DNA from: a virus
Reading direction: 5' to 3' (one strand)
IMG/VR virus record: IMGVR_UViG_3300020577_003088
Coordinates: 2,842 to 66,841 of that record
DNA length: 64,000 nt
Position numbers and translations under genes: made by a program. Below the pieces are notes generated by a model. The model searched no databases. It was given only the letters and a program-made list of their open reading frames with translations, and was not told the origin of the DNA. How positions within the stretch are numbered: the stretch's first letter is position 1; every line of letters begins with the position of its first letter. This document shows positions 50,327 to 63,901 of the stretch, one piece after another.

Positions 50327-50670
50327 CAGCCGCGTCCCCCGGATTTGCGTTCTATCTCGTCTTCTTCAACGGCGGCGGCGTAGGCTTCCGCGTAAACCTT
50401 GGACGCATTCAGAAACTCTTCCGCCGCCTGAAGGGCGCCGACCAGCGCGCGTCCTTTGGCGATCAGCTTTGGCGTCAGCTTGGCGTCGGCCACGGCGCTC
50501 GGCGCATTGAGCGCGTCATTGTAGCATTTCGCCATGAGCGCGTAGGTGTCCGGCTTTCCGACTTCGAGGAGCGCCATCGCCGCATTTATCATCGCCTTGT
50601 CGCACTCACGAGAAACGAGAGTCACGGCCAGTTTGCCGATGACCTCGCGAAATGGCTTCATCCCTGACAT
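50326..50670 (-). CDS. First gene of the leftward early operon (helical, 114 aa)
   Basis: Start taken at MSGMKPF. Divergent from the Cro-like gene at 50782. Confidence 0.45.
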   Translation of the reverse strand: MSGMKPFREVIGKLAVTLVSRECDKAMINAAMALLEVGKPDTYALMAKCYNDALNAPSAVADAKLTPKLIAKGRALVGALQAAEEFLNASKVYAEAYAAAVEEDEIERKSGGRG

Positions 50671-50719
50671 CGCGTCGCTCCGAGTTCCACATCGCCAAGA
50701 TGGGCGTTTGCGCATCGAC

Positions 50720-50772
50720 CGTCAAGGCTCGCCTGACGCGCGATTGCTCATTTTCTCGACAATCGGTAGAGT
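50720..50772 (+). promoter_or_regulatory. Switch region: palindrome CGTCA-N9-TGACG plus promoter TTGCTC-N17-TAGAGT for the Cro-like gene
   Basis: Palindrome at 50720-50738. The -35/-10 pair (50744-50772) ends 9 nt before ATG 50782, implying a near-leaderless mRNA. Confidence 0.35.
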
Positions 50773-50781
50773 GATTCGCGC

Positions 50782-50997
50782 ATGACAGCCGCGACGAAAG
50801 ACCTGACGCCGAGAGACGCCATCCGCCGCTTACAGCGGATCGACGTGACGGCGAAGGAGTGGTGCGAGCGCGCCGAGGTCAGCGTCTCCACATGGCAGCG
50901 CTGGCAACGCGGGGCGCATGAACCGCGAGCCTCGACGCGGCGTGTCCTGGCGATGGCGCTGTGCGCCATGGAAAGGGAAAGGGGCAGGGATGATTGA
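50782..50997 (+). CDS. Cro/XRE-family HTH regulator
   Basis: 71 aa. HTH AKEWCERAEVSVSTWQRWQRG. First gene of the rightward unit, divergent from the leftward operon. Confidence 0.55.
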   Translation: MTAATKDLTPRDAIRRLQRIDVTAKEWCERAEVSVSTWQRWQRGAHEPRASTRRVLAMALCAMERERGRDD

Positions 50998-51169
50998 GGG
51001 ATGGCTCACTGACATAGAGGCGTGGATGGAGGGCGGCGGGGTGGCGATCCTCGCGTTCGGGGGGTGGCTGCTGATGATCGCGATGATGGTCGCGCGCCTC
51101 CTTTACCAGACGTTCGTTCACCCGCTCGACCCGCCGGAGGATCACTATGGCCGCCGTCGCGACTGGTAA
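50990..51169 (+). CDS. Small membrane protein (59 aa)
   Basis: ATGA overlap with the cro-like gene. TM segment VAILAFGGWLLMIAMMVARLL. Confidence 0.35.
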   Translation: MIEGWLTDIEAWMEGGGVAILAFGGWLLMIAMMVARLLYQTFVHPLDPPEDHYGRRRDW

Positions 51170-51398
51170 GCGGCTCACCCTGTCGGGGTGGGAGCGGTGC
51201 TGTCTGATCGGCGTCTACTTCAACGACAAGGCCAGCAGCCGTGAGACCTTGATCGCGGAGGCCGCGCTCCGACGTAAGGGGCTGCTCACGCCAGAGCGGG
51301 CGCTGACGCCGCGTGGCAAGCAGATCGCCGAGAAACTGATCGACAAGATGGATAGGAGGCTTTTTCAGCCGTGGAATGGGTCGGGCACTACATCCTGA
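51147..51398 (+). CDS. Hypothetical protein (83 aa)
   Basis: ORF in the rightward unit. Confidence 0.4.
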   Translation: MAAVATGKRLTLSGWERCCLIGVYFNDKASSRETLIAEAALRRKGLLTPERALTPRGKQIAEKLIDKMDRRLFQPWNGSGTTS

Positions 51399-51724
51399 AG
51401 GGGCGTGAGCCCGTGGCCGTGTCCCTAGAAGAGTGGATGCGGTGGTGGCCCGACGCCGACCGCGTGGTGGCGCGAACTCGACTGGCGAGCGGCGTGACTG
51501 TTTCGACGGTGTTTCTCGCCCTTGACCCTAACTTCCATGGCGATGGACCGCCCCTCTTGTTTGAGACGATGGTCTTCGATGCGCCTAGCGATCCCTCGCG
51601 CCCGTTCGGCGAAGATAGGCTCTGCCGTCGCTATCCGACATGGGCGGACGCCGAGATCGGCCATATGGAAGTGTGTGAAATGCTGGAGCCTGACTTTCTA
51701 TTCACAGGCCGCGCACAACATTGA
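51371..51724 (+). CDS. Hypothetical protein
   Basis: ORF. The start is uncertain (GTG at 51371 or ATG at 51440). Confidence 0.35.
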   Translation: MEWVGHYILKGREPVAVSLEEWMRWWPDADRVVARTRLASGVTVSTVFLALDPNFHGDGPPLLFETMVFDAPSDPSRPFGEDRLCRRYPTWADAEIGHMEVCEMLEPDFLFTGRAQH

Positions 51725-52044
51725 GGGCGCCGCCGCCGCCTTTCATTTGACGCGAATCGAGAAGCCGGAAAACTGAAGCGGCCCCGGAGAAGGAACCTCC
51801 GAGGCCGCTTCCGCGACGAGCGGGGACGCATCAAATCGCAACGCCAGTCTGGTGAGGAGCCCGGCGTGAACCAAGTATATAGGGCGCTTCGCCCTTCCGA
51901 TACAAGTCCTTGTGTGCGCCGCCGCGCCGCACCGCCCGCAGCCCGCCGGGAACCCGGCGCCGCCGGGATCGCCGCCTATTCTGCCGTGATGTTCTCGGCG
52001 TCAGCGGCATCGCTTTACATAATAAACATTACGCGAGTCGACGC

Positions 52045-53433
52045 ATGCTGACGCCGCCGCACGACCTCGCCGCCGAGCAAGCCGTGCTCGGCGCCCTGCT
52101 CTTCGACAACCAGTTGCTCGACGCCATGCCGTTGCTCGTCGGCGACTGCTTCTATGAGCCGGTTCACCAACGCATCTTCAGCGCGACGGTGCGTCTCATT
52201 CGCGCCGGTCGCATTGCGGACGCCGTGACATTGCGGGCGATGGCGGCGCGAGATGGCGCGCTCGAAGAGATCGGCGGCGCGCAATATCTGTTGAGGCTGC
52301 TCGAAGGCGCGGCGCGCTTGCGCACGCAAGCCATCGACTATGCACACTTGTTGATCGACTTGCGCGCGCGCCGCGAGATCGCCGTCGCTCTCAATGAAGC
52401 GGTTGGCATGCTCTCGCAAACGTCCGCGATTTCGGCGAGCGATCTATTGTCTGGGCTCGAAGCGAGCCTGCGCAAGATCGCGGTGAGCGGCGAGTCGAGC
52501 GGCGTGACGCTCGAAGAGGCGGCGCAAAACCTCATCGCCAACATGAGCGATCCGGCGCGACGCGGCATGCGAACCAGCTTCGACGTGCTCAATCGTCGCC
52601 TTGGCGGCTTCTTCCCTGGCGAACTGATCCTGATTGCCGGACGCCCGTCCATGGGGAAGACGGCCCTCGCCACAAACATCGCCCGCAACCTCGCCGCTGA
52701 AGGCAAGCGCGGTCACTTCGCCAGTTACGAAATGAGCGCCGAGAGCATCGCCGCACGGTCGCTCTCGGCGGCGTCATTCGCCGATGAACAAAGGCGTTTC
52801 GACTATGCCTCGCTCCGGCGCTCCTTCGAGGGTCCGAGCGTTGACGTGTCCATGCTGCGGGCGATGGCGCGCGATCTGCCCACGTCCCTTCTCATCGACT
52901 CCACGGCGGCGCAGACGGTGGCGCAACTCGACGCCTCGATCCGCAACACGCGTCGCCGCCTCGGCGGCATCGACTATGTGGTGGTGGACTATCTGCAACT
53001 CATGCGTTCGCCTGTGCGCGGCGGACGTGTCGAACAGATGACCGAAGTCAGCCAGGGCCTCAAGGCGCTCGGCATGACCTACAATGTGCCGGTCTTCGCG
53101 TTGTCGCAATTATCACGGTCGAACGAGTCGCGTGAGGACAAACGCCCCCAACTCCACGACCTCCGCGAGAGCGGATCGCTGGAACAGGACGCCGACGTGG
53201 TGCTCGGCGTTTATCGCGAGGCGTACTATCTGAAGCGCGCCCAGCCCATGCGCGCCAACTTCAAGAGCGAGTCAGAGTTCAATCTCGCCGACATCGAATG
53301 GAGCGACAAGCTGCGCGCCGTCGAGCGGATTCTTGAAGTCTCGACCCTCAAGCAACGCAACGGCGACGTGGGCACGGATACACTCGACTTTTGGGCGAAA
53401 TACGATGTCGCCGCTGACGCGGTGCGGAGGTAG
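52045..53433 (+). CDS. dnaB: Replicative DNA helicase, DnaB family
   Basis: N-terminus PHDLAAEQAVLGALLFDNQ...HQRIF...IGGAQYLLRL is the DnaB N-terminal signature. Walker A GRPSMGKTALA. Internal ATG of the track ORF taken as the start. Confidence 0.8.
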   Translation: MLTPPHDLAAEQAVLGALLFDNQLLDAMPLLVGDCFYEPVHQRIFSATVRLIRAGRIADAVTLRAMAARDGALEEIGGAQYLLRLLEGAARLRTQAIDYAHLLIDLRARREIAVALNEAVGMLSQTSAISASDLLSGLEASLRKIAVSGESSGVTLEEAAQNLIANMSDPARRGMRTSFDVLNRRLGGFFPGELILIAGRPSMGKTALATNIARNLAAEGKRGHFASYEMSAESIAARSLSAASFADEQRRFDYASLRRSFEGPSVDVSMLRAMARDLPTSLLIDSTAAQTVAQLDASIRNTRRRLGGIDYVVVDYLQLMRSPVRGGRVEQMTEVSQGLKALGMTYNVPVFALSQLSRSNESREDKRPQLHDLRESGSLEQDADVVLGVYREAYYLKRAQPMRANFKSESEFNLADIEWSDKLRAVERILEVSTLKQRNGDVGTDTLDFWAKYDVAADAVRR

Positions 53434-53435
53434 CA

Positions 53436-54425
53436 ATGGACGGCGCACGGTACTCGATCTTTGCGGCGCGCGCGGTCTTCGACGCACGGCTCACGAATAC
53501 CGCCAAGATCGTGCTCGCCGCCCTTGGCACCTACACGGACAAAGAAGGCTGGTGCCATCCGAGCCAGGCCACGCTCGCCGCGCGTCTGGGCATTGGGCGC
53601 CCTGCTGTCTCGGCCTCGATCAATATGCTGGTGGACTGCGGCTACGTCATGGTTCGCGCGCGCACGGCGTCAGGGCGCGGCAAGATCGGCAATGAGTACC
53701 GGGTCGTTACCGACCTCCCGAACGCCAGCGAACGTCCAATGTCGTCCTCGGACGACAACGGCAAAACACCCGATGTCGCTCCAGAAAGACAACGGAAGGG
53801 CCGCAAGGGAAATAGGGCCGTCGCCAAGCCGATGTCGTCCCAGAACGACAATGGGCCGATGTCGTCCCAGAACGACATGCCGATGTCGTCCCAGAACGAC
53901 ATCGTATATACGGATGAACGACCCCAGACTCTTGGGGGAAAGCCGAAGGGCGATTTGTTCGGGGAGCCCGCCCCTTCACCGGCCCCTCGCAAGCCGCGAG
54001 CGCCAGCATACCCGGAAGACTTCGAGGCGTTCTGGCGCACCTGGCCGAAGAACCGACGCGAGCGATCCGACAAGCGCACGGCGATGCGGCGATGGGCGGA
54101 CGCACGCATGCGCTGGGATGCGAGCCTGCTGATGCGCGCCGCCGAGAACTACCTCTCGAAGCCGGACACGCGGAAGGAGGACTGGCGCTACTGCTGCCTT
54201 GCCGAAGTGTTCCTCAACGGCAAGCTGGAGGCGGCGGTCGAGGCTGTCGAAGATCAGGCGCCGGAGCGCGAAGAGCCCGACGACGGCAATGGCCGCTACC
54301 GGGCGGCGTGCATGCTGCGGCTGAAGCATGGGCGTTGGCTCGCGAGCGGGCCGCAGGCAGATGAAATCCCGCATGTCGTGCAGCGGGAGTATCCTCAACT
54401 CTTCTCGCAAGGAGGTCTGCAATGA
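53436..54425 (+). CDS. Replication initiator-like protein (N-terminal wHTH) containing iterons
   Basis: wHTH LTNTAKIVLAALGTYTDKEGWCHPSQATLAARLGIGRPAVSASINMLVDCGYV is typical of phage replication-initiation proteins. Central PMSSQND repeats encode the DNA iterons. Confidence 0.55.
   Translation: MDGARYSIFAARAVFDARLTNTAKIVLAALGTYTDKEGWCHPSQATLAARLGIGRPAVSASINMLVDCGYVMVRARTASGRGKIGNEYRVVTDLPNASERPMSSSDDNGKTPDVAPERQRKGRKGNRAVAKPMSSQNDNGPMSSQNDMPMSSQNDIVYTDERPQTLGGKPKGDLFGEPAPSPAPRKPRAPAYPEDFEAFWRTWPKNRRERSDKRTAMRRWADARMRWDASLLMRAAENYLSKPDTRKEDWRYCCLAEVFLNGKLEAAVEAVEDQAPEREEPDDGNGRYRAACMLRLKHGRWLASGPQADEIPHVVQREYPQLFSQGGLQ
53736..53915 (+). repeat. Iteron array: 3 perfect and 2 degenerate copies of ccgATGTCGTcccagaACGACAt, plus AT-rich GTATATAC
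   Basis: Perfect copies at 53829-53850, 53856-53877 and 53880-53901. Degenerate copies near 53736 and 53769. Each unit is itself an inverted repeat (ATGTCGT / ACGACAT). The palindrome GTATATAC follows. Confidence 0.55.
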
Positions 54426-54616
54426 GCTACGCCGCGCGCAACACCGCGAAGGTATCCCCGAAGCACCGCGAGATTGATCCTGACGACGCGCGCTTCTGGC
54501 GTGAGCAGAGCGAACGCGAACCGCTGGACGAACGCATCGAATTGCTGAAAGAGGAATGCGGCAATGGCGCGCTCGCGTTCGCGCTGCGGGCCGCACTGGA
54601 GAAGCACGCGGGATGA
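54422..54616 (+). CDS. Hypothetical protein (64 aa)
   Basis: ATGA-coupled ORF. Confidence 0.4.
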   Translation: MSYAARNTAKVSPKHREIDPDDARFWREQSEREPLDERIELLKEECGNGALAFALRAALEKHAG

Positions 54617-54798
54617 TCTGCGACGACGCGCTCAATGACCCGGAGCGCCGCATGGCGACGGCCTATTGCGGTCAGTGTCGGGTTTTCTTTTACGTCGAAT
54701 GCCCGGTATGCGCGCATCACGCCGCAGGGCCGCCGCCGAAGATGGACGAGCGCGCCGATGATCTTCCGTTGCTGAACTGGATCAACCAAAACCCATGA
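54613..54798 (+). CDS. Cys-rich zinc-ribbon-like small protein (61 aa)
   Basis: Internal ATG overlapping the previous stop. CGQC ... CPVC motifs. Confidence 0.35.
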   Translation: MICDDALNDPERRMATAYCGQCRVFFYVECPVCAHHAAGPPPKMDERADDLPLLNWINQNP

Positions 54799-54998
54799 CG
54801 ACCGCCCCTTCCCGACGCTCGATTTTCAAGGGCCTCATGGCCGCGCCTGTTGCGGCGGCTGTGGGCTCTGATGTCGCCGCCCAGCCATGGGCTTACGGGA
54901 TTGATCCGTATTATGGATCGCCATTATGGATCGCCGCTGCCGATGGCGCCGAACGTGGCGGGAGAGGCCATGAGCGCATGGCGCATGGACGCGGCTAG
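54795..54998 (+). CDS. Small ORF with twin-arginine-like N-terminus (weak)
   Basis: ATGA coupling with the previous gene. SRRSIFKGLMAAPVAAAVGS resembles a Tat signal, but the protein is only 67 aa. Confidence 0.25.
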   Translation: MTTAPSRRSIFKGLMAAPVAAAVGSDVAAQPWAYGIDPYYGSPLWIAAADGAERGGRGHERMAHGRG

Positions 54999-55233
54999 CG
55001 CCAACGCAGAGAAGATTGCAGAGCGTGTCGTGACTTCTGGCTACGCCGAAGTCATCGGCGAACGCGCCAAGCCTCCCGGCTCCACCGGCTCATGGGAGGC
55101 TGTATGGGATCGCATGGAGGTCGTGCAACCGTCTCTCGCGGCGAGGTGCCGTCGTCTCTCTCGATTGCGCTCTATGAGCCAGGCGGCGAAATGGGCGTAC
55201 GGTTCCCCGACAGCCACGCCGACATCGCCTTGA
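54970..55233 (+). CDS. Hypothetical protein (87 aa)
   Basis: ATG with GGGAGAGG RBS. This is the internal Met of the track ORF 54850-55233. Confidence 0.25.
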   Translation: MSAWRMDAASANAEKIAERVVTSGYAEVIGERAKPPGSTGSWEAVWDRMEVVQPSLAARCRRLSRLRSMSQAAKWAYGSPTATPTSP

Positions 55234-55525
55234 GCGCGTGCTCATCCCAGCCGTCGATCTGATCCGCCAGAGCGGCGTCTAGTTGTGCGGCGCTGAACAG
55301 GAGATCGACGGCGTTGCCAGCGAACGCGCCTCGGTGAAAGACCCCCTCCCCGGTCCAGAAGTCACAGAACACCGAGCCGTCCGCCTGCGACATATAGGGT
55401 TTGCCGGAGAAGAACGGCTTCGTCCGGCGCATGTCTGGCGGCACGTCGAGAACCGCATCCCAGATCGCCTTCATCTTGGGGTGGATGTCATCGACGGCGT
55501 AGAGGATGCCGCGTGGCTCAATCAT
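55172..55525 (-). CDS. Hypothetical protein (117 aa)
   Basis: Last gene of the second leftward operon. Confidence 0.4.
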   Translation of the reverse strand: MIEPRGILYAVDDIHPKMKAIWDAVLDVPPDMRRTKPFFSGKPYMSQADGSVFCDFWTGEGVFHRGAFAGNAVDLLFSAAQLDAALADQIDGWDEHALKAMSAWLSGNRTPISPPGS

Positions 55526-55895
55526 GGCCGCCTACCTTTACACGCTCGTTGATCTCAACAACGCCGTCCCTCTCGATGGCGTCTGGCGGCAGGCCGTTCC
55601 TCTCCCAATTCTCGATCTTCAATAGGGTCAGTTCCTTGACGGCGTACTTCATCCCTTCATAGGCGATAAGGGCTTGGCGACAGAAGTAGGCGCCGACACC
55701 GGCCACCAACGCCGCGATGGCTGCGTCTCCAGCGCGCGCCGTCGCATTGTGCGCCACAAGATAGATGCCCATGAGCAGAGCGCCAGCGGCGTAACCTGTC
55801 AGCAGCATTCCAGTGACGCTCGCGAGGCGCTGACGGAAGGCGATGGAGTGGCCGTTGACCCTAATCATCATAAAGGCGTCAGGCGCGATTTTCAT
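55518..55895 (-). CDS. Small membrane protein (2 TM)
   Basis: Internal ATG (MKIAPDAF...). Hydrophobic segments LLTGYAAGALLMGIYLV and AIAALVAGVGAYF. Confidence 0.4.
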   Translation of the reverse strand: MKIAPDAFMMIRVNGHSIAFRQRLASVTGMLLTGYAAGALLMGIYLVAHNATARAGDAAIAALVAGVGAYFCRQALIAYEGMKYAVKELTLLKIENWERNGLPPDAIERDGVVEINERVKVGGHD

Positions 55896-55908
55896 GGTGC
55901 TTCCCTTC

Positions 55909-56196
55909 CTAGAAGTAGTCGATGCGGCGCGCACTGCCGCCTTCCTTGACGCGCCACCACCTATGCCAGGCGATGGTCATGGCGGCATCTAAGATCATCC
56001 GAACGACGATGTAGATGGCGCAAAGCGTGAAGGCGAGCGCCGATGATCCGTCAAGGGAAGCAAGCTGGCCGTTGGAGAATTGCTTGTCCGCCGCGCGCCA
56101 GAGGCCGGGGATGAAGTCGATGGCGAATGCGCAGCCCAACATGACGCCCCAGATCAGGCGATACCATGCGGCGTCTTCCGTGATCTTCGGGATCAT
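55909..56196 (-). CDS. Small membrane protein (95 aa)
   Basis: Hydrophobic segments IWGVMLGCAFAIDFI and LAFTLCAIYIVVRMIL. Confidence 0.4.
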   Translation of the reverse strand: MIPKITEDAAWYRLIWGVMLGCAFAIDFIPGLWRAADKQFSNGQLASLDGSSALAFTLCAIYIVVRMILDAAMTIAWHRWWRVKEGGSARRIDYF

Positions 56197-56513
56197 GAGA
56201 TCACCGCCTTCTCCGTCACGATCTCTCCCTCGATAGGTGCGCGCATTGGCACGCCGTTCGGGCTAAGGCGCGGCGTGAGCCCGCCGCCCTCGGTGCCGAC
56301 GTACTGGATGCCTGTGTGGTGATCGGTGTAGAGGCGCAGGCCAGAGCGGGCGCCTTTCGGGTCATCCGTGGTGTCGCGAGGCGCGAGCGAACGAACCGCC
56401 GCAACGGCGACCGCCGATAAGGTCCACACGCCCCAGAAAAGAAGCGTGAGGAGAACGACGATCTTAAGGAACAAGAACATACCCTCTCCCATGTCACCGC
56501 TCCTCATGTGCAA
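56193..56513 (-). CDS. Small membrane protein (N-terminal TM)
   Basis: FLFLKIVVLLTLLFWGVWTLSAVAVAAV. The start is uncertain. Confidence 0.35.
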   Translation of the reverse strand: MHMRSGDMGEGMFLFLKIVVLLTLLFWGVWTLSAVAVAAVRSLAPRDTTDDPKGARSGLRLYTDHHTGIQYVGTEGGGLTPRLSPNGVPMRAPIEGEIVTEKAVIS

Positions 56514-56832
56514 ATGGCGTGATGAGCACGACGATGGCGTTGAAGAGCGCGGCGGCGCCGACGATGGCGAACCACGACACGACCATATCGGCGGGCCAGA
56601 TCAGCGCGATGGGGCGCGGTTGATAGACGCCGACCGCCGTCAGCGCGACCCAATGGCTCATGCAGTACGGACATGACGCCATCTTGCCGATGACGGGATG
56701 CGCGCGCCAGGCAAGGTCGCGCAGCCATTTGAACATGCTCGACTTGGTGAGCGTGAGCGTGACGGCGCAGACCGCCAGCATCAGAATGAAGAGCGCGGCG
56801 ACGCCATCGCCGGAGACCAATAGTGTTTGCAT
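56494..56832 (-). CDS. DUF1360-like membrane protein
   Basis: CPYCMSHW motif between hydrophobic helices, as remembered for the DUF1360 family. Internal ATG (MQTLLVSG...). Confidence 0.45.
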   Translation of the reverse strand: MQTLLVSGDGVAALFILMLAVCAVTLTLTKSSMFKWLRDLAWRAHPVIGKMASCPYCMSHWVALTAVGVYQPRPIALIWPADMVVSWFAIVGAAALFNAIVVLITPFAHEER

Positions 56833-56864
56833 GGTGTGTCTCGTGTGTCCTCTACAAGTGACGG

Positions 56865-57179
56865 TTACTGGTCGGCGGCGCGGGCGGCGTACCAGTCGGA
56901 ACTGCTCGCTCGACGAGAGGTTTTTTGGCCATTTACAAAAAAATAGAACCCTCCGTAGTTGCATGATTTTACGCCGCACTTGCAGCGCACATCAGGCGGT
57001 TCCGGTTTTTCCTCAACCGAACGCAGCGCTTCAACGGCGCGCGCGGCTTCGGTCGCCGCCGAGGTCGCCGCCTCGGCGGCTTGGGCGGTGTCCGGTTTCT
57101 TGAGGTCGCCGCCGAGCGTAACCTTCGGGTCGGTCTCGACGGTCGGCGCCTTTTTGATCTTCTTGCGGTCCTGGCTCAT
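56865..57179 (-). CDS. Hypothetical protein with disordered N-terminus and CKCGVKSC motif
   Basis: ATG at 57179. Low-complexity Ala/Glu/Lys N-terminal half and Cys-rich C-terminal half. Confidence 0.35.
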   Translation of the reverse strand: MSQDRKKIKKAPTVETDPKVTLGGDLKKPDTAQAAEAATSAATEAARAVEALRSVEEKPEPPDVRCKCGVKSCNYGGFYFFVNGQKTSRRASSSDWYAARAADQ

Positions 57180-57222
57180 GGCCCCTCTCTATTGGCTCTA
57201 TTGGCCCTGTCGGACAGGCGGC

Positions 57223-58665
57223 TTACGCCGCCTGCCTTTGACGGTCGGTGCGGTAGACGGCGCGTACGCGGCGGTCGCCGACGAGTTCAAGGATCGCGTC
57301 GCGGTGGTCGAGATCGCGGTTCTGATCTTCGACCGCCTTCAGCGCCCGCAGAATGTCGTCGCGTTGAAGGCCGCCCATGGTATTGGCCTTGAGATCGCGT
57401 TGCAGCGCAAACGAGGTCGCCTGCTGCACCACGCCCGCCACCAGCGCGCCATTGACCAAGTGACGCAGCGCAAGGGTTTCGTCGCCGTCTTCCGTCTCCA
57501 CGCGGTAGAGCGCGCGCTTGGCGTGGAAGAGTTCGACGGCGGAGAACGCCGCGACATCCTCGATGTCTTCCCCGTCCGCCAGCGGCACGCCACGAAGGTT
57601 CATGGCGAAGATCGAATGGCTGGACGTGAGGTCAGGCCGCTCAATCTTGATCTTGCGGTCGATCCGTCCGTCGCGCACGATGGCCGGGTCGAGCGTGTCG
57701 GGCCGGTTGGTGGCGAGGATCGTCAGCGCGCCGGTCTCTTCGAGGCCGTCCATTTCCGTCAGAAACGCCGGAACGATGGTGCGCTCCATGTCCGAGGAAA
57801 TCGACGATCCGCGACGGCCCAGCAACGAGTCGGCTTCGTCGATGAAGATGACCGCAGGCGCCCCCGTCTCTTTCTTGAAGCGTCGGGCGCGCGCAAAGAG
57901 ATCGCGGATCGACGCCTCCGCCACGCCGACGAAGCGGTCAAGGAGTTCCGGCCCCTTCACATAGAGGAAGCCATCGCTCGTCCCCTTGTCAGCGTGCAGG
58001 CTCGCCAACGCCGTCGCCGCCGCCTTGCCGAGCATGGTCTTGCCGCAGCCGGGAGGGCCATAGAGCAGGATGCCCTTGGCGGGCTTCTTGCCGTAGTGTG
58101 AGAAGATCGCCGGGTTCCGATGCGGCAGTTCGACGGCCTCGATCATCGCGGCCTTGGCGTCTTGCAGCCCGCCGATGTCGTTCCACGAGACATTGGTCTC
58201 TTCGCGCACGACGTAGGCTTGCTGCTGTTTGGGCAGCTTGCGGGCGGCAATGATGTTGCCTTCGACGATCACGCGGTCGCCCGCTTCCAGCTTGAGGCCG
58301 CCGGAGAAAATGACTACCGGAGCGCCATCGCTGCGGATTTCGACGAAGCGCTTGTCGATGACGCTGGAGATCGTCTGGATGGTCCCGCCGAGATCGAAGT
58401 CGATCAGATCGACGATCTGCATGTTGAGCACAAGCACCCGCGAGCCGATCTTCAGCTTGAGGCCGTTGGCAGGCTCGACCTGGGCCATGGCCCCGCCGAC
58501 GCAGACGATAGGCTTGGGTTTCAACTCGACGACGACGCCGAATGATTTCGGCGATTCAGACACGCGGTCGATGAAGTCTTGCTGTTGCGCGAGCGCTTCT
58601 TGCGCCTGCTCAAGCGCCGACTTGAGCGCTTCGACTTGCCGGAGGATTTCTGCGTCCTTGCCCAT
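57223..58665 (-). CDS. AAA+ ATPase of the classical (FtsH/proteasomal ARC/PAN) clade with N-terminal coiled coil and OB-like domains
   Basis: Walker A GILLYGPPGCGKT, Walker B VIFIDEADS, second region of homology ILATNRPDTLDPAIVRDGRIDRKIKIERPD. N-terminal coiled coil and two beta-rich segments give an ARC/Mpa/PAN-like architecture. Confidence 0.75.
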   Translation of the reverse strand: MGKDAEILRQVEALKSALEQAQEALAQQQDFIDRVSESPKSFGVVVELKPKPIVCVGGAMAQVEPANGLKLKIGSRVLVLNMQIVDLIDFDLGGTIQTISSVIDKRFVEIRSDGAPVVIFSGGLKLEAGDRVIVEGNIIAARKLPKQQQAYVVREETNVSWNDIGGLQDAKAAMIEAVELPHRNPAIFSHYGKKPAKGILLYGPPGCGKTMLGKAAATALASLHADKGTSDGFLYVKGPELLDRFVGVAEASIRDLFARARRFKKETGAPAVIFIDEADSLLGRRGSSISSDMERTIVPAFLTEMDGLEETGALTILATNRPDTLDPAIVRDGRIDRKIKIERPDLTSSHSIFAMNLRGVPLADGEDIEDVAAFSAVELFHAKRALYRVETEDGDETLALRHLVNGALVAGVVQQATSFALQRDLKANTMGGLQRDDILRALKAVEDQNRDLDHRDAILELVGDRRVRAVYRTDRQRQAA

Positions 58666-58707
58666 GGTGTGATCTTGTCCCTGCACACGGTCAATCCGCC
58701 GGGATCA

Positions 58708-58740
58708 TGTATAGCGTATTGCTATCACCGCAACCCCTGT
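58708..58740 (-). promoter_or_regulatory. GCTATACA motif plus palindrome ATAGC-N5-GCTAT upstream of the AAA+ ATPase gene
   Basis: Plus strand reads catGTATAGCgtattGCTATcacc. The -10-like TATACA on the minus strand lies ~45 nt upstream of the ATPase ATG. Confidence 0.3.
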
Positions 58741-58748
58741 TGGGCGAA

Positions 58749-58973
58749 TTATTTCCAGTAGCGCGGATTCCAGTATTGAGCGACGATCTCCCGCCGGGCG
58801 TCGGTTACGGCCTCGACCTCGGCATAAGCGACATGGGACAGTCCCATATACGCGCGCCAGACTTCATCTGCCGCCGGGCGGTTGGCGAAGACCCGTTCGC
58901 GTTCTTCACCCTCCGGGCTGGCGGTTCGGACGACATAGGTTGTCTCCGTCCGGCTGCGCTCCATATTGCTCAT
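58749..58973 (-). CDS. Hypothetical protein, first gene of the second leftward operon
   Basis: Track ORF 58749-59045. Start chosen at MSNMERS (58973) because GCTATACATG lies immediately upstream. The alternative start is 59045. Confidence 0.3.
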   Translation of the reverse strand: MSNMERSRTETTYVVRTASPEGEERERVFANRPAADEVWRAYMGLSHVAYAEVEAVTDARREIVAQYWNPRYWK

Positions 58974-58979
58974 CGGCGG

Positions 58980-59068
58980 CATGTATAGCAGAAGGCGAAC
59001 AAAGGCAATGGCCGTGGCGTCGCCGTGCGGCGGGATGTTGCGCAAATCATTGAACCGACCTATCTAAT
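58980..59068. promoter_or_regulatory. Second divergent switch region: GCTATACATG (minus) and TTGCGC-N17-TATCTA (plus)
   Basis: Minus-strand TATACA is followed within 8 nt by ATG codons, suggesting a leaderless transcript. The plus-strand promoter-like pair ends 8 nt before ATG 59074. Confidence 0.3.
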
Positions 59069-59073
59069 TTTGC

Positions 59074-59307
59074 ATGACTCGCCCGAAACGCCTGACCGGC
59101 GCCCAACTGCGCAAGGAACGCGAACGTCTCGACATGACGGGCGAGGCGTTTGGCGAGTACCTTGCCGAACTGACCGGAAACCCCCGCGCCTATACGCGGG
59201 CGGAGGTCTCGAATTGGGAGACCGAGGCCCGCCCCTTCCCGGCGCATCTGGAACTGGCGCTCGTCCGCAGGCAACTCGAAGAGTGCCGGAAGAAGGCAAG
59301 GCGCTAA
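59074..59307 (+). CDS. Cro/XRE-family HTH regulator
   Basis: 77 aa. LTGAQLRKERERLDMTGEAFGEYLA ... YTRAEVSNWE fits an XRE HTH. Confidence 0.55.
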   Translation: MTRPKRLTGAQLRKERERLDMTGEAFGEYLAELTGNPRAYTRAEVSNWETEARPFPAHLELALVRRQLEECRKKARR

Positions 59308-59345
59308 CGTCTCCTCAATACTTTTGCGGCTAGAGTGCGCGCTCA

Positions 59346-59558
59346 ATGGAGCGGCGCATGTTCACGATCTGGAGTAGGGAGAAGGGCTTCGGGGAGAGGT
59401 TCGTCCACCTATTCGAGGCGATGGAGAGAGCGCGAGCGTTGGCCGCCGACTGGCCCGACATCCGGTTCCACGTCATGCAGGCCCACGGTTGGGCGATGAG
59501 CACCCCCTCTGGCGCCGTTATGGTAGTAGAAGGTCGGGCTGCTTCGTTTGCCGCCTGA
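59346..59558 (+). CDS. Hypothetical protein (70 aa)
   Basis: ORF in the rightward unit. Confidence 0.35.
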   Translation: MERRMFTIWSREKGFGERFVHLFEAMERARALAADWPDIRFHVMQAHGWAMSTPSGAVMVVEGRAASFAA

Positions 59559-59577
59559 CGGCTCCGAGGCGCGCGTG

Positions 59578-59952
59578 ATGGTCGATCTCCCTCCGATGGA
59601 TATAGGATCGCTGGTGGAGTTTTTCGTGCTCCTCGCCGGGGTGCTTGGCGTCTGGTTCACCGTCCGCAACGACATCGCCAACATGAAGGCGCGGCAGGCG
59701 GCGCAAGATTTGCTGCTGAAGCAGCACGCGGAGAAGCTGGAAATTCACGGCGCCTTTGAGCCGCGCTTGCGGCAAGTAGAAAGCCACGGCGAGAAGGTTG
59801 AGCAGATCGCCCCCCTCGCCGAGCGGATGTCGTCTTTCGAGCGACATACCCTTGAAACCCTTTCAGGCATGCGCGATCAGATGCGGGAATTGGCGCAGTC
59901 CGTGCGCGACCTGACATCGGCCTTCGTCGGCAAAGCCCGGCAGATCGGCTAG
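59578..59952 (+). CDS. Membrane-anchored coiled-coil protein
   Basis: Internal ATG (MVDLPP...). TM segment LVEFFVLLAGVLGVWFTV followed by a helical/coiled region. Confidence 0.4.
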   Translation: MVDLPPMDIGSLVEFFVLLAGVLGVWFTVRNDIANMKARQAAQDLLLKQHAEKLEIHGAFEPRLRQVESHGEKVEQIAPLAERMSSFERHTLETLSGMRDQMRELAQSVRDLTSAFVGKARQIG

Positions 59953-59958
59953 CTGGGC

Positions 59959-60561
59959 ATGGCCAAAGACCCCCGCCTTTCCATCGGCGCGAACGGCGGG
60001 CCGCCGCTGGATGAGGCGCCCGCAAAGCCTCCGACACGGGTCATGGACCCGGCGCTTGTCCGTCTGGCGCATCTGGGCTGCAAGATGGTCGCCCTCCTCA
60101 TGGAAGAACAAGACCCGGCCAAGGTGCTCATCAAGCGCCAGGGAGGCCGTGCGCTCATCACCCGCAAGGTCTGGCTCTACGCGATGCAGCGATTTGTGCC
60201 GCAATGGATGCTGGCCCAGATGACCGGCCTTGATCGCGGGACGGTCGCCCAAGATCAGCGCGATGTCGCCGTGTGGATGGAGAACAAGGGCCTGATCCGC
60301 TCGCTTGTGGAGGCGGTGATCGACGCCACCGAAGTTCTCCCGGCTTTTGTCGAAGACGGCGCCGAGTTCGTCGAGGAGTGCCTGCTTGAGCTATCGGTCA
60401 AGCGAGTGCGGGCGGCGGCGGCGCTGCTGGAGGAGAGCGCCCCGCCCCCTCCCGCCGTGGTCACGCTCATTCGTGAGGGACGGCTTACGCCGCAACGGGC
60501 GTGCGCCCTCTACGGCGTGAAGCCCGCGCAAGTCGAAAGATGGGTTAGGATGTCGGTCTGA
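59959..60561 (+). CDS. Hypothetical protein with C-terminal HTH-like segment
   Basis: 200 aa. C-terminal REGRLTPQRACALYGVKPAQVERWV. Confidence 0.45.
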   Translation: MAKDPRLSIGANGGPPLDEAPAKPPTRVMDPALVRLAHLGCKMVALLMEEQDPAKVLIKRQGGRALITRKVWLYAMQRFVPQWMLAQMTGLDRGTVAQDQRDVAVWMENKGLIRSLVEAVIDATEVLPAFVEDGAEFVEECLLELSVKRVRAAAALLEESAPPPPAVVTLIREGRLTPQRACALYGVKPAQVERWVRMSV

Positions 60562-61397
60562 TGGCTGAAGATGCACCCTCTCCAATGGCTGCGGCCATGT
60601 TCTGGCGCCAGCAGCAGGAGCGCGCCAAGCGCCGCGACAGTCGTCCGAAGCCTGCGGCGGCTGCAAGCCAACCCTCTGGCGGTCCGGGCGGGGCGAGCGC
60701 TGCGATGGTGCGCCAAATCCGTCGCGTCAATGGTGTTGACGAGAGAAAGCCGCAGCCGCTCTCGACGGAAAATCGTTCGCGCCTGCTGGGCGCCATATGG
60801 GATTTCGAGGCCACGTCAAACGAGCCAGAGAACTCCCCCGCCCGGCGTAACGCCGTGGCGCGTTTGCGTCAGTTCGCCGAAGCGCATCCCGACAACGAAC
60901 TGGCCCGTAATGCGCTGGAGTATGACCGCATCCGCCGGACGCACATGCTGCGGGACAGCAGCGGCCAAACAAAAGCGGAGCGTGATGCGACGGTGGGCGA
61001 GAACGCTCGCCTGAACTGGCTGGAAAACCGCTCCGCCGATACGCTAGAAGGCTACGCTCAACGCAATCCTGACGGCCTCCTCGCCAGCGTTGCGGGAGAT
61101 CGCGGTTGGTTCGGCGACGCTAAGGAGCGTGACCGAGTGGCGCGTGGACGGCCTACGTCTGGCCTGTCGGCTACCGAGCAAGCGGCGCTTGAGCAACCCG
61201 CGCCCGACTGGCTGATGCGTGCAGCGCGCGGCAATCCCTATGGCGTTGACGCCTCGCCGCCGCCGTCGCGCGCGCCGACTGTGGACCCCAACACGCTGGA
61301 GGTCCGCCCCTCTCTGACGCGGTATGAAGACGGAAGGCCAGTCGTTGACCGGGACCGCGCTTACATGGCTCGTCGATTGTTTCGACCGAAGCCTTGA
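60561..61397 (+). CDS. Hypothetical protein (278 aa)
   Basis: Coupled start (TGATG). Confidence 0.45.
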   Translation: MAEDAPSPMAAAMFWRQQQERAKRRDSRPKPAAAASQPSGGPGGASAAMVRQIRRVNGVDERKPQPLSTENRSRLLGAIWDFEATSNEPENSPARRNAVARLRQFAEAHPDNELARNALEYDRIRRTHMLRDSSGQTKAERDATVGENARLNWLENRSADTLEGYAQRNPDGLLASVAGDRGWFGDAKERDRVARGRPTSGLSATEQAALEQPAPDWLMRAARGNPYGVDASPPPSRAPTVDPNTLEVRPSLTRYEDGRPVVDRDRAYMARRLFRPKP

Positions 61398-61422
61398 TGG
61401 ATATAGCGACGCGCTATACATG
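61391..61422 (+). promoter_or_regulatory. Promoter-like element with palindrome TATAGCG-acg-CGCTATA and GCTATACA motif
   Basis: Palindrome with 7-bp arms at 61403-61419. TTGATG lies upstream. The downstream gene has a GAGGAAG RBS and an ATG at 61443. Confidence 0.35.
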
Positions 61423-61442
61423 GGGGCTTCAGAGGAAGCCCT

Positions 61443-61715
61443 ATGCCGAAAGACAACGACATCACCCCTCCCCTGTCTCTGATCGCTAAGACGGTCGGGA
61501 CGATCATCGCCGGGGCGGTGTCTGTTCTCGCGGGACAGCAACTCCTGAACATGCGTGAAGACGCGGCGGTCATCGGCGGCTTCATGCTGCTCGGCTGCGG
61601 CTTTCTGCTCGCGCCTTACACAGCGATCAACCTCTGGCGTGAGTGGCGCTCGGAGATCGACAGCTACTCACAAGCCAATGACACTGAAGGGAACGACGAC
61701 AATGAAGAAGTATAG
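61443..61715 (+). CDS. Small membrane protein (2 TM)
   Basis: TM segments TVGTIIAGAVSVLAG and VIGGFMLLGCGFLLAPY. Acidic C-terminus. Confidence 0.4.
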   Translation: MPKDNDITPPLSLIAKTVGTIIAGAVSVLAGQQLLNMREDAAVIGGFMLLGCGFLLAPYTAINLWREWRSEIDSYSQANDTEGNDDNEEV

Positions 61716-62529
61716 CCTCGCCACCATGCTTGTGTCGGCTCTCGCCTTGACGGCGTGCGGAGAGTCAATCCGCTCCGGCCAGGTGGGCGTGCGCGTCAAC
61801 GAAATGGGCTCGAAGGCTGGCGTGCAAGATCAGGAACTCGGCGTCGGCTTCTACTGGAGCCAGATGAACAGCTACATCGTCAAGTTCCCGACGACTGTGC
61901 GAACGGAGGTCTGGGGCAATACGGACGGCGCGGGCGGCGCTCCGCTGACCTTCACGAACAAGGATCAGATGATTACGGGCGCCGCGATCAGCCTGCAAAT
62001 TCGCGTCGATCCGTCGAAAGTCAGCGAGATCGTGCAGCGCTATCGTCTCGGCTTCGAGGAAATGATTGACGGCCCGGTGCGCCGTCGCGTGCAAGACGCC
62101 CTTATTCAGGAGGGCAGCAAGTATACCTCCGAAGAACTGATGTCCGGCAGCGGCGCAAAACTTCTCGGCGAAGTGCTGGAGCGCATCCGCGCGCCGCTCG
62201 CCGAAGAGGGTATTGTGATCGAGAACATCGCCCTTGTCGGCCCGTTTGGCTTGCCGGAAAGTGTCGTTGAACAGATCAACCAGCGCGTGAAGCGTCAGCA
62301 GGAAGCCGAGTCCGAGCGCGCGCAAGTCGAGGTCATCAAGGCGCAAGCCGAGCAGGCTATCGAAGAGGCCCGTGGCCGGGCCATGGCCATGGAGATCGAA
62401 GGACGCGCGCTGGCGGCCAACCCTGGCGTCTTGAGGATGCGGGAGATAGAGGCTTCCACCGGGCAATGCCCGCTCGGCGCGCAAATCTGCGTCATCGGCG
62501 CCAACTTGCCGGTTATGGAACGACAGTAA
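61702..62529 (+). CDS. SPFH (band-7/prohibitin/HflK-like) domain lipoprotein
   Basis: Internal ATG (MKKYSLATMLVSALALTACGE...) with an LTAC lipobox. SPFH-like core (QVGVRVNEMGS...ELGVGFYW...FPT) and a C-terminal coiled region. Confidence 0.6.
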   Translation: MKKYSLATMLVSALALTACGESIRSGQVGVRVNEMGSKAGVQDQELGVGFYWSQMNSYIVKFPTTVRTEVWGNTDGAGGAPLTFTNKDQMITGAAISLQIRVDPSKVSEIVQRYRLGFEEMIDGPVRRRVQDALIQEGSKYTSEELMSGSGAKLLGEVLERIRAPLAEEGIVIENIALVGPFGLPESVVEQINQRVKRQQEAESERAQVEVIKAQAEQAIEEARGRAMAMEIEGRALAANPGVLRMREIEASTGQCPLGAQICVIGANLPVMERQ

Positions 62530-62551
62530 TAAGGCAGGAAGGAACGAGAGC

Positions 62552-62857
62552 GTGAGCGATATGCCTGAGAGCCGGGAAGCTGGCGAGGCCATCATCAAGA
62601 TGGTCGTCGGGCACGGATTTTTCCCTGATGACCGCGGGCTTCTCGCCCTCGCCCGCCTCGGCCTCGCGGTCGCTTTTCCGAGCGAGGAAGACGTGCAGCG
62701 AATGGTGCGGGCCGCCTTCAAGGTGGCGACCGATCCAGACACGCCGGGGCCGCAGCTTCCCGTGGACACGAAGGCCGACTTCGAGGCGGTCGTCGAATGC
62801 ACCATGCTCATGGTCCGCGCCGCCCTCGCCGCTCTTCAGGAAGGAACGAAGCCATGA
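62552..62857 (+). CDS. Hypothetical protein (101 aa)
   Basis: ORF. The start could be GTG at 62552 or ATG at 62561. Confidence 0.4.
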   Translation: MSDMPESREAGEAIIKMVVGHGFFPDDRGLLALARLGLAVAFPSEEDVQRMVRAAFKVATDPDTPGPQLPVDTKADFEAVVECTMLMVRAALAALQEGTKP

Positions 62858-63198
62858 GCGTTGATGCGTCGAAGCTGCGGGAGGGGGATGTCGTGCTGCT
62901 GCGGGCGACAGTCCGCGAGGACGGCATTGATGGCGATGGCGAGGTGACCGTTGCGATAGACGGCATTGACCGCCCCTTGAAGGTCATCGGCGTTGCGCCG
63001 TGGACAATCGTCTCCATCGAGCCCCGCCCTATCGCTGTGGGGGATCGGGTAGATTGCGCGCAAGTTGCGTGGCCTGCCCAGGTGTGGGCGCTTTCGCCTG
63101 ATGGCTTGAACGCATGGATCGGCGAAGTTGGCGGCCCTCGTCACGTTGCCGTACCCCTCTCCACCCTCACCCGCGAGGAGCCCTCCGATGGCGAGTGA
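62854..63198 (+). CDS. Hypothetical protein (114 aa)
   Basis: ATGA overlap with the previous gene. Confidence 0.4.
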   Translation: MSVDASKLREGDVVLLRATVREDGIDGDGEVTVAIDGIDRPLKVIGVAPWTIVSIEPRPIAVGDRVDCAQVAWPAQVWALSPDGLNAWIGEVGGPRHVAVPLSTLTREEPSDGE

Positions 63199-63604
63199 GC
63201 GCACAGACCTCTCAGCGCTGGTGGAAGAAGCGCGGGCGACGGCGCGCGATTATCGAAACCTCCCGCCCGGAAGGCCGCTTACAGCCGACCTCCTCGACCG
63301 CCTCGCCGACGCTCTTTCTCTATCTGCCCCCGCGGGCGGGCGGGATGCGATCATTGAGGAATGCGCGAAGCTCTGCGAGGGCGAAGTCCCGTATGAATTG
63401 CTGCGTCCGGTTTATGTTGAGGCGCGCGAAAGCCATCGCGTAATGACGAGCCGTGCGACGCAGGATTGTCACCCCGGCGATGATTTCGAGTGGCATCTGA
63501 TCCGCGCGCTCGGCAAATATTTCGCCTCCTCCATCCGCGCTCTCAAGTCTGGCGATCCCACATGGAGCCCCTCCATGACAAACTTAGAGATGTCCGCGCA
63601 ATGA
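63188..63604 (+). CDS. Hypothetical protein (138 aa)
   Basis: Internal ATG overlapping the previous stop. Confidence 0.4.
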   Translation: MASERTDLSALVEEARATARDYRNLPPGRPLTADLLDRLADALSLSAPAGGRDAIIEECAKLCEGEVPYELLRPVYVEARESHRVMTSRATQDCHPGDDFEWHLIRALGKYFASSIRALKSGDPTWSPSMTNLEMSAQ

Positions 63605-63661
63605 TGCGCGAGATAGAGGCCCGCCTTTCCGCGCGCCTGCAAGCAGAAGGAAACGCATAAC

Positions 63662-63901
63662 ATGACCAACGAAATCCATCCCGCGCCGACCGAGTTCACG
63701 CCGGACGAAATCGCGCAAGACGCGATCCTGCGCTACTTCCATTACGCTCACCTGCCCCCGGCGCTTCAATCGCGCTCGAAGCCGTTTTGCGATCTGGCGC
63801 GGCTGATCATCGACACCACGCCGCGCAACGCTGAGCGCACGGTCGCCCTTCGCAAGCTTCTGGAGGCGAAGGATGCGGGGGTAAGGGCTCACGTCGGATG
63901 A
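63662..63901 (+). CDS. Hypothetical protein (79 aa)
   Basis: ATG with GAAGGAAACG RBS. Confidence 0.4.
   Translation: MTNEIHPAPTEFTPDEIAQDAILRYFHYAHLPPALQSRSKPFCDLARLIIDTTPRNAERTVALRKLLEAKDAGVRAHVG

Follow-up and report, generated by a model that had tools for sequence, protein, structure and literature searches.

An Mpa-lineage AAA+ ATPase encoded by a phage beside a cysteine-tailed, probably Pup-like small protein and a DUF1360 membrane protein

A 64-kb phage genome fragment with a guanine-plus-cytosine (GC) content of ~62-63% (positions 2,842 to 66,841 of the IMG/VR record IMGVR_UViG_3300020577_003088; this whole stretch of 64,000 nucleotides is referred to as the window) encodes on its minus strand an operon whose conserved core is three adjacent genes. 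These specify an AAA+ ATPase, a small cysteine-tailed protein that we call a Pup-like handle, and a membrane protein of the DUF1360 family. The ATPase almost certainly belongs to the Mpa/ARC lineage, and there is a good chance that ATPase, handle and DUF1360 protein make up a functional module. The full mechanism that we propose, in which a Pup/Mpa-like unfoldase module works with neither ligase nor protease and is linked via cysteines to a membrane protein, has in our estimate a probability of roughly 0.5. In the literature we found neither a phage module of the Pup or Mpa type nor a function assigned to DUF1360.

In the proposed mechanism the ATPase would act as a hexamer, and the small protein would serve as a Pup-like handle that is encoded by its own gene and not enzymatically ligated. 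The helix of the handle would dock on the coiled coil of the ATPase and its disordered N-terminus would be threaded into the ATPase pore. Its C-terminal cysteines would hold the cargo, for which the CPYCxxH site on the cytoplasmic side of DUF1360 is the most likely candidate; the two would be joined by a metal ion that both bind (in the manner of a zinc clasp) or by a disulfide. The unfoldase would be brought to the inner membrane and would pull on the membrane complex; no dedicated protease would take part, and the likely purpose would be remodelling of the host membrane or proteome. The features of the three core genes are as follows.

57223..58665, minus strand: AAA+ unfoldase, 480 amino acids from an ATG, or 487 from the GTG at 58686
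58558..58659, minus strand: N-terminal helix of the ATPase, residues 3-36, predicted by AlphaFold2; aligns with the N-terminal region of Mpa (TIGR03689, Foldseek)
58234..58545, minus strand: two small beta domains of the ATPase, residues 41-87 and 95-144, predicted by AlphaFold2 and OB-like as in Mpa/ARC
57925..57933, minus strand: pore loop 1 of the ATPase, Phe-Val-Gly, residues 245-247; V246 and G247 do not vary in alignment A1, and F245 is taken from the sequence itself
56865..57179, minus strand: p104, a candidate long-form Pup-like handle protein of 104 amino acids with three cysteines, between the ATPase and DUF1360
56961..56984, minus strand: cysteine knuckle CKCGVKSC, p104 residues 66-73 (long-form alignment A7, and A3 and A5)
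56494..56832, minus strand: DUF1360 inner-membrane protein, 112 amino acids, three hydrophobic segments
56653..56673, minus strand: CPYCMSH motif, DUF1360 residues 54-60, at the predicted cytoplasmic entry of the second transmembrane segment (TM2)

The ATPase and its place in the Mpa/ARC lineage

Pfam recognises a single AAA domain in the ATPase (1.7e-33). The best NCBIfam model by far is TIGR03689, 'proteasome ATPase' (E 1.1e-94), with residues 13-460 aligned to positions 12-486 of the 512 in the model; at 318 bits the match does not reach the equivalog cut-off of 504.75 bits. The AlphaFold2 model, which was made with 28 homologues and has a predicted local distance difference test score (pLDDT) of 84.9, consists of a helix, two beta domains, an AAA module and a helical lid with a beta insertion. 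It can be aligned over its full length with the Mpa chains 7pxd, 5kwa and 5kzf. When the PDB was searched with Foldseek, the top 30 matches were all Mpa chains (best E 6e-36, ~470 aligned columns), followed by Rpt subunits as second-best (1e-24 to 1e-26, ~375 columns). A resemblance to ARC and Mpa had been proposed in the initial annotation, made from the letters of the sequence, and it extends over the full length of the protein, its predicted fold and its phylogeny (60/60 bootstraps for the Mpa lineage, see below).

Residues of the AAA module are well conserved among the homologues. Invariant in A1 are D276 and E277 (Walker B), N320 (sensor 1) and R331 and R334 (arginine fingers), together with five of the eight residues of the Walker A segment G203-T210, in which P205 and C207 are nearly so. 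Pore loop 1 has the same aromatic-hydrophobic-glycine (Ar-Hb-Gly) motif as that of Mpa, F341-V342-G343 (PMC8755798). The helix formed by residues 3-36 in the model is presumed to be a coiled-coil recruitment element.

Other AAA+ families share parts of this architecture. PAN and Rpt1-6 have the same layout of coiled coil, OB and AAA domains, and NCBIfam PAN models match the window ATPase at 1e-55. However, they possess one OB domain and an HbYX tail, whereas the window ATPase has two OB-like domains and fits Mpa far better. FtsH is comparable as a functional analogy only, being likewise a classical-clade AAA+ ring at the inner membrane; its NCBIfam model matches the ATPase at 2e-47 in the AAA module only (residues 150-380). 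Neither a transmembrane segment nor an M41 or other peptidase domain was found in the ATPase by hydropathy and Pfam, and any membrane association would therefore have to be made in trans, via the handle and DUF1360. The protein is neither an FtsH fragment nor a CbbX in a housekeeping neighbourhood, two identities that the initial annotation had named as those that would speak against its proposal.

The ATPase ends in ...RTDRQRQAA and lacks a GQYL or HbYX docking motif. GQYL or GHYL terminates 129 cellular Mpa homologues, and the phage-clade proteins end otherwise. Many ATPases of the family (P0003-P0120; positions 57226-57250 in the window) share a tail of a different kind, reading ...[KR]LRQ[AS]xA, ...AAN or ...QRQAA, which could be a docking or degron signal.

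Thousands of relatives of the ATPase are present in the databases. Those that are 45-56% identical come from metagenomes and from metagenome-assembled genomes (MAGs) of candidate phyla, and frequently carry the annotation 'proteasome-associated ATPase'. We obtained ~55 phage-clade and 129 cellular Mpa loci by scanning species-representative genomes, viral contigs and metagenomes. A neighbour-joining tree (60 bootstraps) was built with other viral AAA+ proteins for comparison. Phage-clade and cellular Mpa proteins together were monophyletic with respect to the other viral AAA+ proteins in 60/60 bootstraps. Cellular Mpa was itself monophyletic in 60/60 with the phage proteins outside it, and the core of the phage clade was recovered in 36/60. 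The topology therefore points to the Mpa lineage and not to the cellular Mpa family. The ATPase departs from Mpa proper in four respects, namely its equivalog score, the GQYL tail, the composition of its locus and its clade.

The closest ATPase in cultured phages, at 33% identity, is that of the Brevundimonas phages Strzyga (vB_BpoS-Strzyga, ON529867; L003 6605-8017) and Polewnik; no other ATPase of the Mpa lineage was found in cultured phages. It is without the coiled-coil and OB region, and is accompanied by neither a handle gene nor DUF1360. The disordered N-terminus of the Strzyga protein contains GCGDPNCMEC, which resembles a form of the long-form cysteine knuckle described below, CxCG[DN]PxC; knuckle and ATPase may have become fused in the Strzyga protein.

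Two further observations concern the surroundings of Mpa-like genes in other loci. Four of them (L007 3988-5481, L009 8328-9896, L097 3258-4751 and L103 8039-9502) encode a second, unrelated AAA ATPase of 487-522 amino acids less than 2 kb away from the Mpa-like gene. In three others, from MAGs of Kerfeldbacteria, Saccharibacteria and a gammaproteobacterium (L008 5522-6004, L012 3618-3872 and L013 4006-4332), the ATPase is immediately preceded by a conserved protein with no Pfam match and a shared core of ~80 amino acids, WKVRVKD...GLNV.F..G.VD.

We searched for the partners that accompany Mpa in cells. Profiles were made from clusters conserved next to cellular Mpa and were taken, by size and position, as Dop/PafA and the proteasome subunit; neither matched anything in the phage-clade loci or in the 64-kb window. 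These results bear on the possibility that the system is coupled to a protease after all, with handle-bearing proteins going to host HslV, ClpP or membrane FtsH, or to a phage proteasome homologue (PPH, AAH). The closest relatives of the ATPase, Mpa, PAN and Rpt, all serve proteasomes, and the conserved non-GQYL tail (...RLRQAxA, ...QRQAA) could dock somewhere. Moreover, phage proteasome-like proteins exist for which no co-occurring AAA+ partner has been found (PMC8665760). We nevertheless consider a protease-coupled system unlikely, given that the ATPase has neither GQYL nor HbYX, that the profile of the inferred proteasome subunit (~243 amino acids) has no homologue in the loci or the window, that Pfam scans of most window proteins returned no Proteasome family (no PPH-specific profile search was made), and that there is no protease among the conserved neighbours of the phage-clade ATPases.

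A family of small cysteine-tailed proteins and its resemblance to Pup

The gene for p104 was called independently by JGI (P0122). The protein begins with a basic N-terminus, MSQDRKKIKKAP, followed by a helix (residues 31-56), the knuckle C66-x-C68-G-x3-C73 and a 31-residue tail that ends in ...AADQ. In the AlphaFold2 model residues 1-30 are without secondary structure (pLDDT 51-54) and residues 31-56 form one helix, with low confidence elsewhere. In A7, the alignment of long forms, P29, C66, C68 and C73 are invariant and G69 is nearly so; C66 and C68 are also invariant in A3 and A5. The long form continues its CxC as CxCGxxxCx[IY]G[PG][FM] and then a tail.

A closer look at the other loci shows that nearly every one has a small open reading frame (ORF) of 59-118 amino acids between the ATPase and DUF1360, and that these ORFs share one layout. 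A basic N-terminus (e.g. MEQERKKKKTQRP) is often followed by a glycine run, then by an amphipathic helix with the motif P-x-[IV]-D-[DE]-V-L-x-x-[LIV]-D-x-A-[LI], and at the C-terminus by CxC or CC. When the 18,815 ORFs of 252 loci were searched with an iterated profile, 45 members were identified, all on the strand of the ATPase and starting from 178 bp before to 1,135 bp after the ATPase stop. After removal of redundancy, 33 of the 53 phage-clade loci have the gene immediately behind that of the ATPase. The family has no name and no Pfam model, and profile searches of large databases gave 10-12 significant members, all of them unnamed. Against the family profile p104 ranks first of the 696 window ORFs, with an E-value of 6.6e-12 when the paralogues of L001, a 73%-identical relative, are included and of 0.38 when they are not. 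Comparison of the long with the short form by hhalign gave a probability of 94.4% (E 9.4e-8) from the helix through the CxC, and p104 appears to join the handle family through this long form and by its position.

The layout of these proteins recalls that of Pup, which has a disordered N-terminal threader, a helix (residues 21-51) that lies antiparallel on the Mpa coiled coil, and a C-terminal attachment point (PMC8755798). When a profile of 17 family sequences was compared with 177,635 distinct PDB sequences, the best match was Pup (3m9d_G, E 4.2e-4; 7px9_G, E 0.002), in an alignment that spans the N-terminus through the helix. A profile of 30 sequences again placed Pup first (E 0.021). Against 19 Pups from cellular loci, hhalign gave the family 87-88% probability (E 3-4e-6) on the helix motif. 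A reciprocal test was made among the 18,815 ORFs. The family profile, here prepared from sequences other than those of the window and L001, had only genuine Pups as its 20 best matches outside the family (hypergeometric p ~7e-49), and Pups accounted for 57 of the best 60 (p ~1e-141). Conversely, the five best non-Pup matches of a Pup profile included three members of the family and, as a fourth, a small ORF without cysteines directly after another phage ATPase. From these profile comparisons we judge the family to be probably Pup-like, as a distant homologue or as a functional analogue, and Pup-like recruitment to the ATPase to be rather likely.

It had been suggested in the initial annotation that small neighbouring ORFs be inspected for Pup-like GGQ or GGE tails. 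The expectation of a Pup-like neighbour was borne out by the family; the expected terminus is absent from p104, which has a cysteine knuckle instead, and the short forms end in CxC or CC. By at least two marks of Pup, the Pfam model and the GGQ/GGE terminus, the small protein is thus not Pup itself. Other readings of the cysteine tail, as part of a ribosomally synthesised and post-translationally modified peptide precursor, as a lipidation motif or as a metallothionein, were set aside because there is no maturase or transferase among the conserved neighbours.

The handle also occurs in variant arrangements. Six loci with shortened ATPases, consisting of the coiled coil and one OB domain, have handle variants with an internal GCGCGG, and DUF1360 is present in 6/6. 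DUF6197 proteins that directly follow the ATPase in L001 and L011 carry N-terminal extensions of 45-62 amino acids before the Pfam domain. The extensions look handle-like (MQEQKKRKT...KKIDVDAALARF; ...APSIGETVRAIDAVL) with weak profile scores (E 0.026). L001 (9493-10920) combines one such DUF6197 protein with three tandem Pup-like paralogues, and L011 (7642-8994) has two of them together with one long-form handle and no DUF1360.

DUF1360 and the linkage of the three genes

The protein encoded at 56494-56832 matches Pfam PF07098 at 29.7 bits, over the gathering cut-off of 21, and has CPYC at residues 54-57, in agreement with the DUF1360-like CPYC protein that had been annotated there. Among 25 homologues the motif C-P-Y-C-x-S-H-W is strongly conserved, with the first and second cysteines each in 25/25, the histidine in 24/25 and tryptophan or tyrosine in 25/25. 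The loop from the first transmembrane segment (TM1) to the motif contains on average 4.6 lysines and arginines, and the N-terminal segment and the loop between TM2 and the third segment (TM3) contain 0.4-0.5. By the positive-inside rule the CPYC motif therefore faces the cytoplasm, which would put the cysteine tail of the handle within its reach.

To describe the neighbourhood of the ATPase, all ORFs ≤4 kb from it in 49 non-redundant phage-clade loci were clustered all-versus-all. The dominant neighbour was DUF1360, found in 25/49 loci; in each it lies downstream on the ATPase strand, at a distance of 85-1470 bp from the stop codon of the ATPase. The runner-up cluster, present in six loci, consists of the GCGCGG-type small cysteine proteins and is counted with the small-protein family. 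With near-duplicates removed, DUF1360 is present in 24/53 phage-clade loci, always downstream of the handle gene, and in 0/129 cellular Mpa loci. The contig of P0126, a database match of the small-protein profile, again reads ATPase, small protein, DUF1360. When cultured and deposited phages were searched with DUF1360 by tblastn, the sole match was the uncultured 462-kb phage LR756500. The trio is present in numerous uncultured phages, whose genomes are very different from one another and range from 40 to 600 kb.

Several results weigh against the proposed module, and some of them would fit a coincidence, in which the ATPase works by itself in the phage as a chaperone or remodeller (for example in replication or assembly), its partners are unrelated and the likeness to Pup arises by chance or from composition. 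Single-sequence tests for Pup fail: neither p104 nor 26 other members match Pfam Pup (PF05639), even with the E-value limit relaxed to 1-10, and when P0126, which is typical of the family, was compared by BLASTP with Pup of Mycobacterium tuberculosis the E-value was 14 (33% identical, in the expected register). Because of these two negatives we have not filed the family as Pup. The long form, including p104, is given a probability of 1.5% against Pup by hhalign, and a PDB search with the long-form profile returned nothing relevant; the link from p104 to Pup is therefore transitive, with support from synteny and layout. The PDB E-values are marginal (4e-4 to 2e-2), and the likeness to Pup could be convergence on an amphipathic helix that binds a coiled coil. 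Neither partner accompanies the ATPase in 20/53 phage-clade loci, some of which are truncated contigs. A short-form CxC handle in L172 has no DUF1360 within the following 1.3 kb, and seven long-form loci are also without it, from which we conclude that the ATPase-handle pair is the broader unit and DUF1360 a frequent third member. Finally, it is the co-occurrence of motifs, and that only, which suggests a cysteine-to-cysteine coupling. A coincidence is nonetheless improbable, as the small gene keeps its place and its strand in 33 loci, from phages that differ greatly in size and base composition, DUF1360 occurs in 25 loci versus 6 for a runner-up that is itself a small cysteine-protein variant, and the retrieval of Pup is reciprocal and highly specific.

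The cysteine motifs could also be read as belonging to a membrane thiol-disulfide or metal-handling pair, made up of DUF1360 with its CPYC and the cysteine-tailed protein, alongside which the ATPase is merely co-transcribed. Such a pair would account for the invariance of both the CxxC and the CxC motif and for the fact that DUF1360 is never without the small protein in these loci; CPYC is also found in glutaredoxin active sites. However, the CPYC is predicted to face the reducing cytoplasm, the small protein and the ATPase also occur without DUF1360, and the N-terminal two-thirds of the small protein resemble the Mpa-binding part of Pup. We therefore hold a pure redox or metal-handling pair to be very unlikely.

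For the coupling within the proposed unfoldase module, the zinc clasp of CD4/CD8 and Lck offers a parallel. There, a single Zn2+ is shared between two chains, of which one contributes a CxC and the other a CxxC, and the CxC tail of the handle and the CPYC of DUF1360, both invariant, would make a similar pair. This is an analogy and not evidence; the CD4/CD8-Lck proteins are unrelated and eukaryotic. A cysteine-metal clasp between handle and DUF1360 is accordingly put forward as a tentative and rather doubtful part of the mechanism.

In our reading the phage module descends from the same stock as the Pup-Mpa system and works like it. All the elements of Mpa are present in the window ATPase, from the coiled-coil helix and the double OB to the AAA module with its FVG loop and the lid with its beta insertion, and the small, largely disordered neighbour resembles the threader and coiled-coil-binding helix of Pup. 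The phage module differs from the Pup-proteasome system in having no GQYL and no detected homologue of Dop, PafA or the proteasome, in a small protein that ends in a cysteine knuckle, in its DUF1360 partner, and in being encoded by a phage, here one with lysis genes of the Gram-negative LysC/Rz1-like type.

Known behaviour of the Pup system makes parts of the mechanism credible. Linear N-terminal Pup-DHFR fusions are engaged by Mpa (PMC8755798), and a translated handle is thus a plausible device for delivering substrates. Corynebacterium glutamicum has no proteasome genes and releases iron from ferritin in a pupylation-dependent way (PMC8223512), which means that a Pup system can act without degradation. 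This case is like the phage module in that Pup-based targeting is independent of both proteasome and degradation; it is unlike it in being chromosomal and in conjugating Pup via PafA and Dop, whereas no ligase was found for the phage module, whose handle seems to be a direct gene product or, as with the DUF6197 proteins of L001 and L011, part of a fusion. ARC is reportedly the unfoldase in the release of iron from C. glutamicum ferritin, a finding attributed to Kuberl et al. 2016. UBact is a Pup homologue reported in some Gram-negative phyla, next to Mpa-like genes. The difference from the phage module is that UBact loci are reported to be cellular and to keep ligase and proteasome genes.

Pup and Mpa are considered peculiar to Actinobacteria and a small number of other phyla, in which, to our knowledge, they are always accompanied by a ligase and a depupylase and usually by a 20S proteasome, and we are aware of no established origin for Pup. 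If the proposed module is real, the range of the Pup/Mpa machinery would widen to phages, including those of Gram-negative and candidate-phyla bacteria. It would supply a testable model for the ligase-free delivery of substrates to an AAA+ unfoldase and a first functional context for DUF1360 and for the unannotated small cysteine-tailed family, and may yield compact, genetically encodable unfolding tags for bacteria. A more general idea, which we think somewhat unlikely, is that phages carry a stripped-down relative of the Pup-proteasome system with ligase-free targeting, the handle being translated with its cargo or clipped on, in this phage to DUF1360, by a cysteine-metal or disulfide clasp; ligase-free tagging would then be a new principle of substrate tagging for AAA+ machines. 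The phage clade might resemble an ancestral state before ligase-dependent pupylation, because the cellular Mpa clade does not include it and it seems to have diverged further in the neighbour-joining tree, or it might be a vehicle of the horizontal spread of Pup.

The operon and its phage context

The eight ORFs of the operon run on the minus strand from 58973 down to 55172, and lie where the initial annotation placed them. The five genes outside the core are as follows.

58749..58973, minus strand: 74-amino-acid ORF upstream of the ATPase; 98 amino acids if the TTG at 59045 is the start
56193..56513, minus strand: DUF6440-like single-pass membrane protein; the likely start is the ATG at 56492, which has a ribosome-binding site (RBS)
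55909..56196, minus strand: 95-amino-acid membrane protein with two to three hydrophobic segments and no family match
55518..55934, minus strand: 138-amino-acid membrane protein with two hydrophobic segments; 125 amino acids from the likely start, the ATG at 55895
55172..55525, minus strand: last gene of the operon, 117 amino acids, with no predicted transmembrane segment and no family match

Gaps between the ORFs are ≤62 bp, the largest being upstream of the ATPase, and several starts and stops overlap, which is consistent with co-transcription. Third-position GC is 0.71-0.83 and a purine-rich, RBS-like sequence precedes most starts. Scans for sigma-70 consensus promoters and for terminators gave nothing above shuffled expectation. 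The ATPase had been thought to head the operon, a place that belongs to the 74-amino-acid ORF. This ORF has no Pfam, PHROG, NCBIfam or PADLOC match, and a homologue in the same position is found only in the close relative L001 (6.6e-18).

Of the five small membrane proteins initially described, hydropathy supports four (DUF1360, the DUF6440-like protein and those of 95 and 138 amino acids), and among these only DUF1360 is a conserved partner of the ATPase. The match of the DUF6440-like protein to Pfam PF20037 (4.9e-5, 23.5 bits) lies under the gathering cut-off of 26.5; it also matches phrog_11767 at 3e-11. This protein and the 138-amino-acid protein have counterparts only in L001, as have the 95-amino-acid membrane protein (4.2e-26) and the 117-amino-acid protein (2.4e-62).

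The contig is podovirus-like; in the JGI data the ATPase gene is found on a 66.8-kb contig. Its portal gene (2861-4642) is labelled 'head-tail adaptor' in PHROGs and 'portal' in the closest phages, and the nearest portals are those of ~40 kb podoviruses infecting Proteobacteria. The window also encodes a major head protein (8306-9313), a tail protein (13598-15907), virion proteins of the Bbp16/Bbp19 and T7 gp14 types, RecT, an Rz1-like LysC, a DnaB helicase (51910-53433) and a replication initiator (53436-54425). No nucleotide-level relative of positions 50000-64000 was found in the phage collection by megablast. The suggestion that the operon is carried by a prophage could not be established, as there are phage genes throughout and neither an integrase nor a bacterial flank was seen in the window.

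The setting of the operon invites a reading in terms of defence, as a superinfection-exclusion or abortive-infection cassette of a temperate phage, in which the membrane proteins would be the effectors and the ATPase would have a sensing or regulatory part. The operon adjoins a divergent Cro/CI-like helix-turn-helix gene (59074-59307) and the replication genes, beside which temperate phages often keep exclusion genes, and four small membrane proteins are encoded in it. PADLOC-DB v2 was run on the eight operon proteins. The AAA domain of the ATPase gave weak matches to the ATPases IetA (1.6e-18) and TRIP13, and the seven other proteins matched nothing. However, the matches cover the generic AAA domain only and no partner such as IetS is present among the eight proteins. 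Moreover, the trio is not confined to small podoviruses but is also present in phage contigs of 400-600 kb, and the window is without a visible integrase. We regard an exclusion or abortive-infection cassette as distinctly unlikely, and the defence island envisaged in the initial annotation was dropped because PADLOC gave generic AAA matches only. Host takeover or superinfection exclusion, also raised there, is possible as a role for the operon; the purpose of the unfoldase module could be remodelling of host membrane proteins, timing, or exclusion.

Three other features of the window are worth recording. A single ORF on the plus strand (19187-35866) encodes 5559 amino acids and occupies a quarter of the genome, inside the virion module. 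It has a Pfam LPD22 domain (large polyvalent protein domain), a GNAT acetyltransferase segment and a Zeta-toxin/AAA_33 kinase-like domain, and looks like a giant 'polyvalent' protein that is probably injected with the DNA. Within the initiator gene, at 53828-53902, there are three tandem 24-bp repeats with the consensus unit GCCGATGTCGTCCCAGAACGACATG, which encode the peptide repeat PMSSQND. By analogy with lambda O, they look like the iterons of an origin embedded in the initiator gene. Lastly, a protein of the Band_7/SPFH family is encoded on the plus strand ~2.5 kb from the operon (61555-62529; phrog_200, 1.2e-58); it is another membrane-organising protein near the operon, and Pfam Band_7 is found on the same gene in L002.

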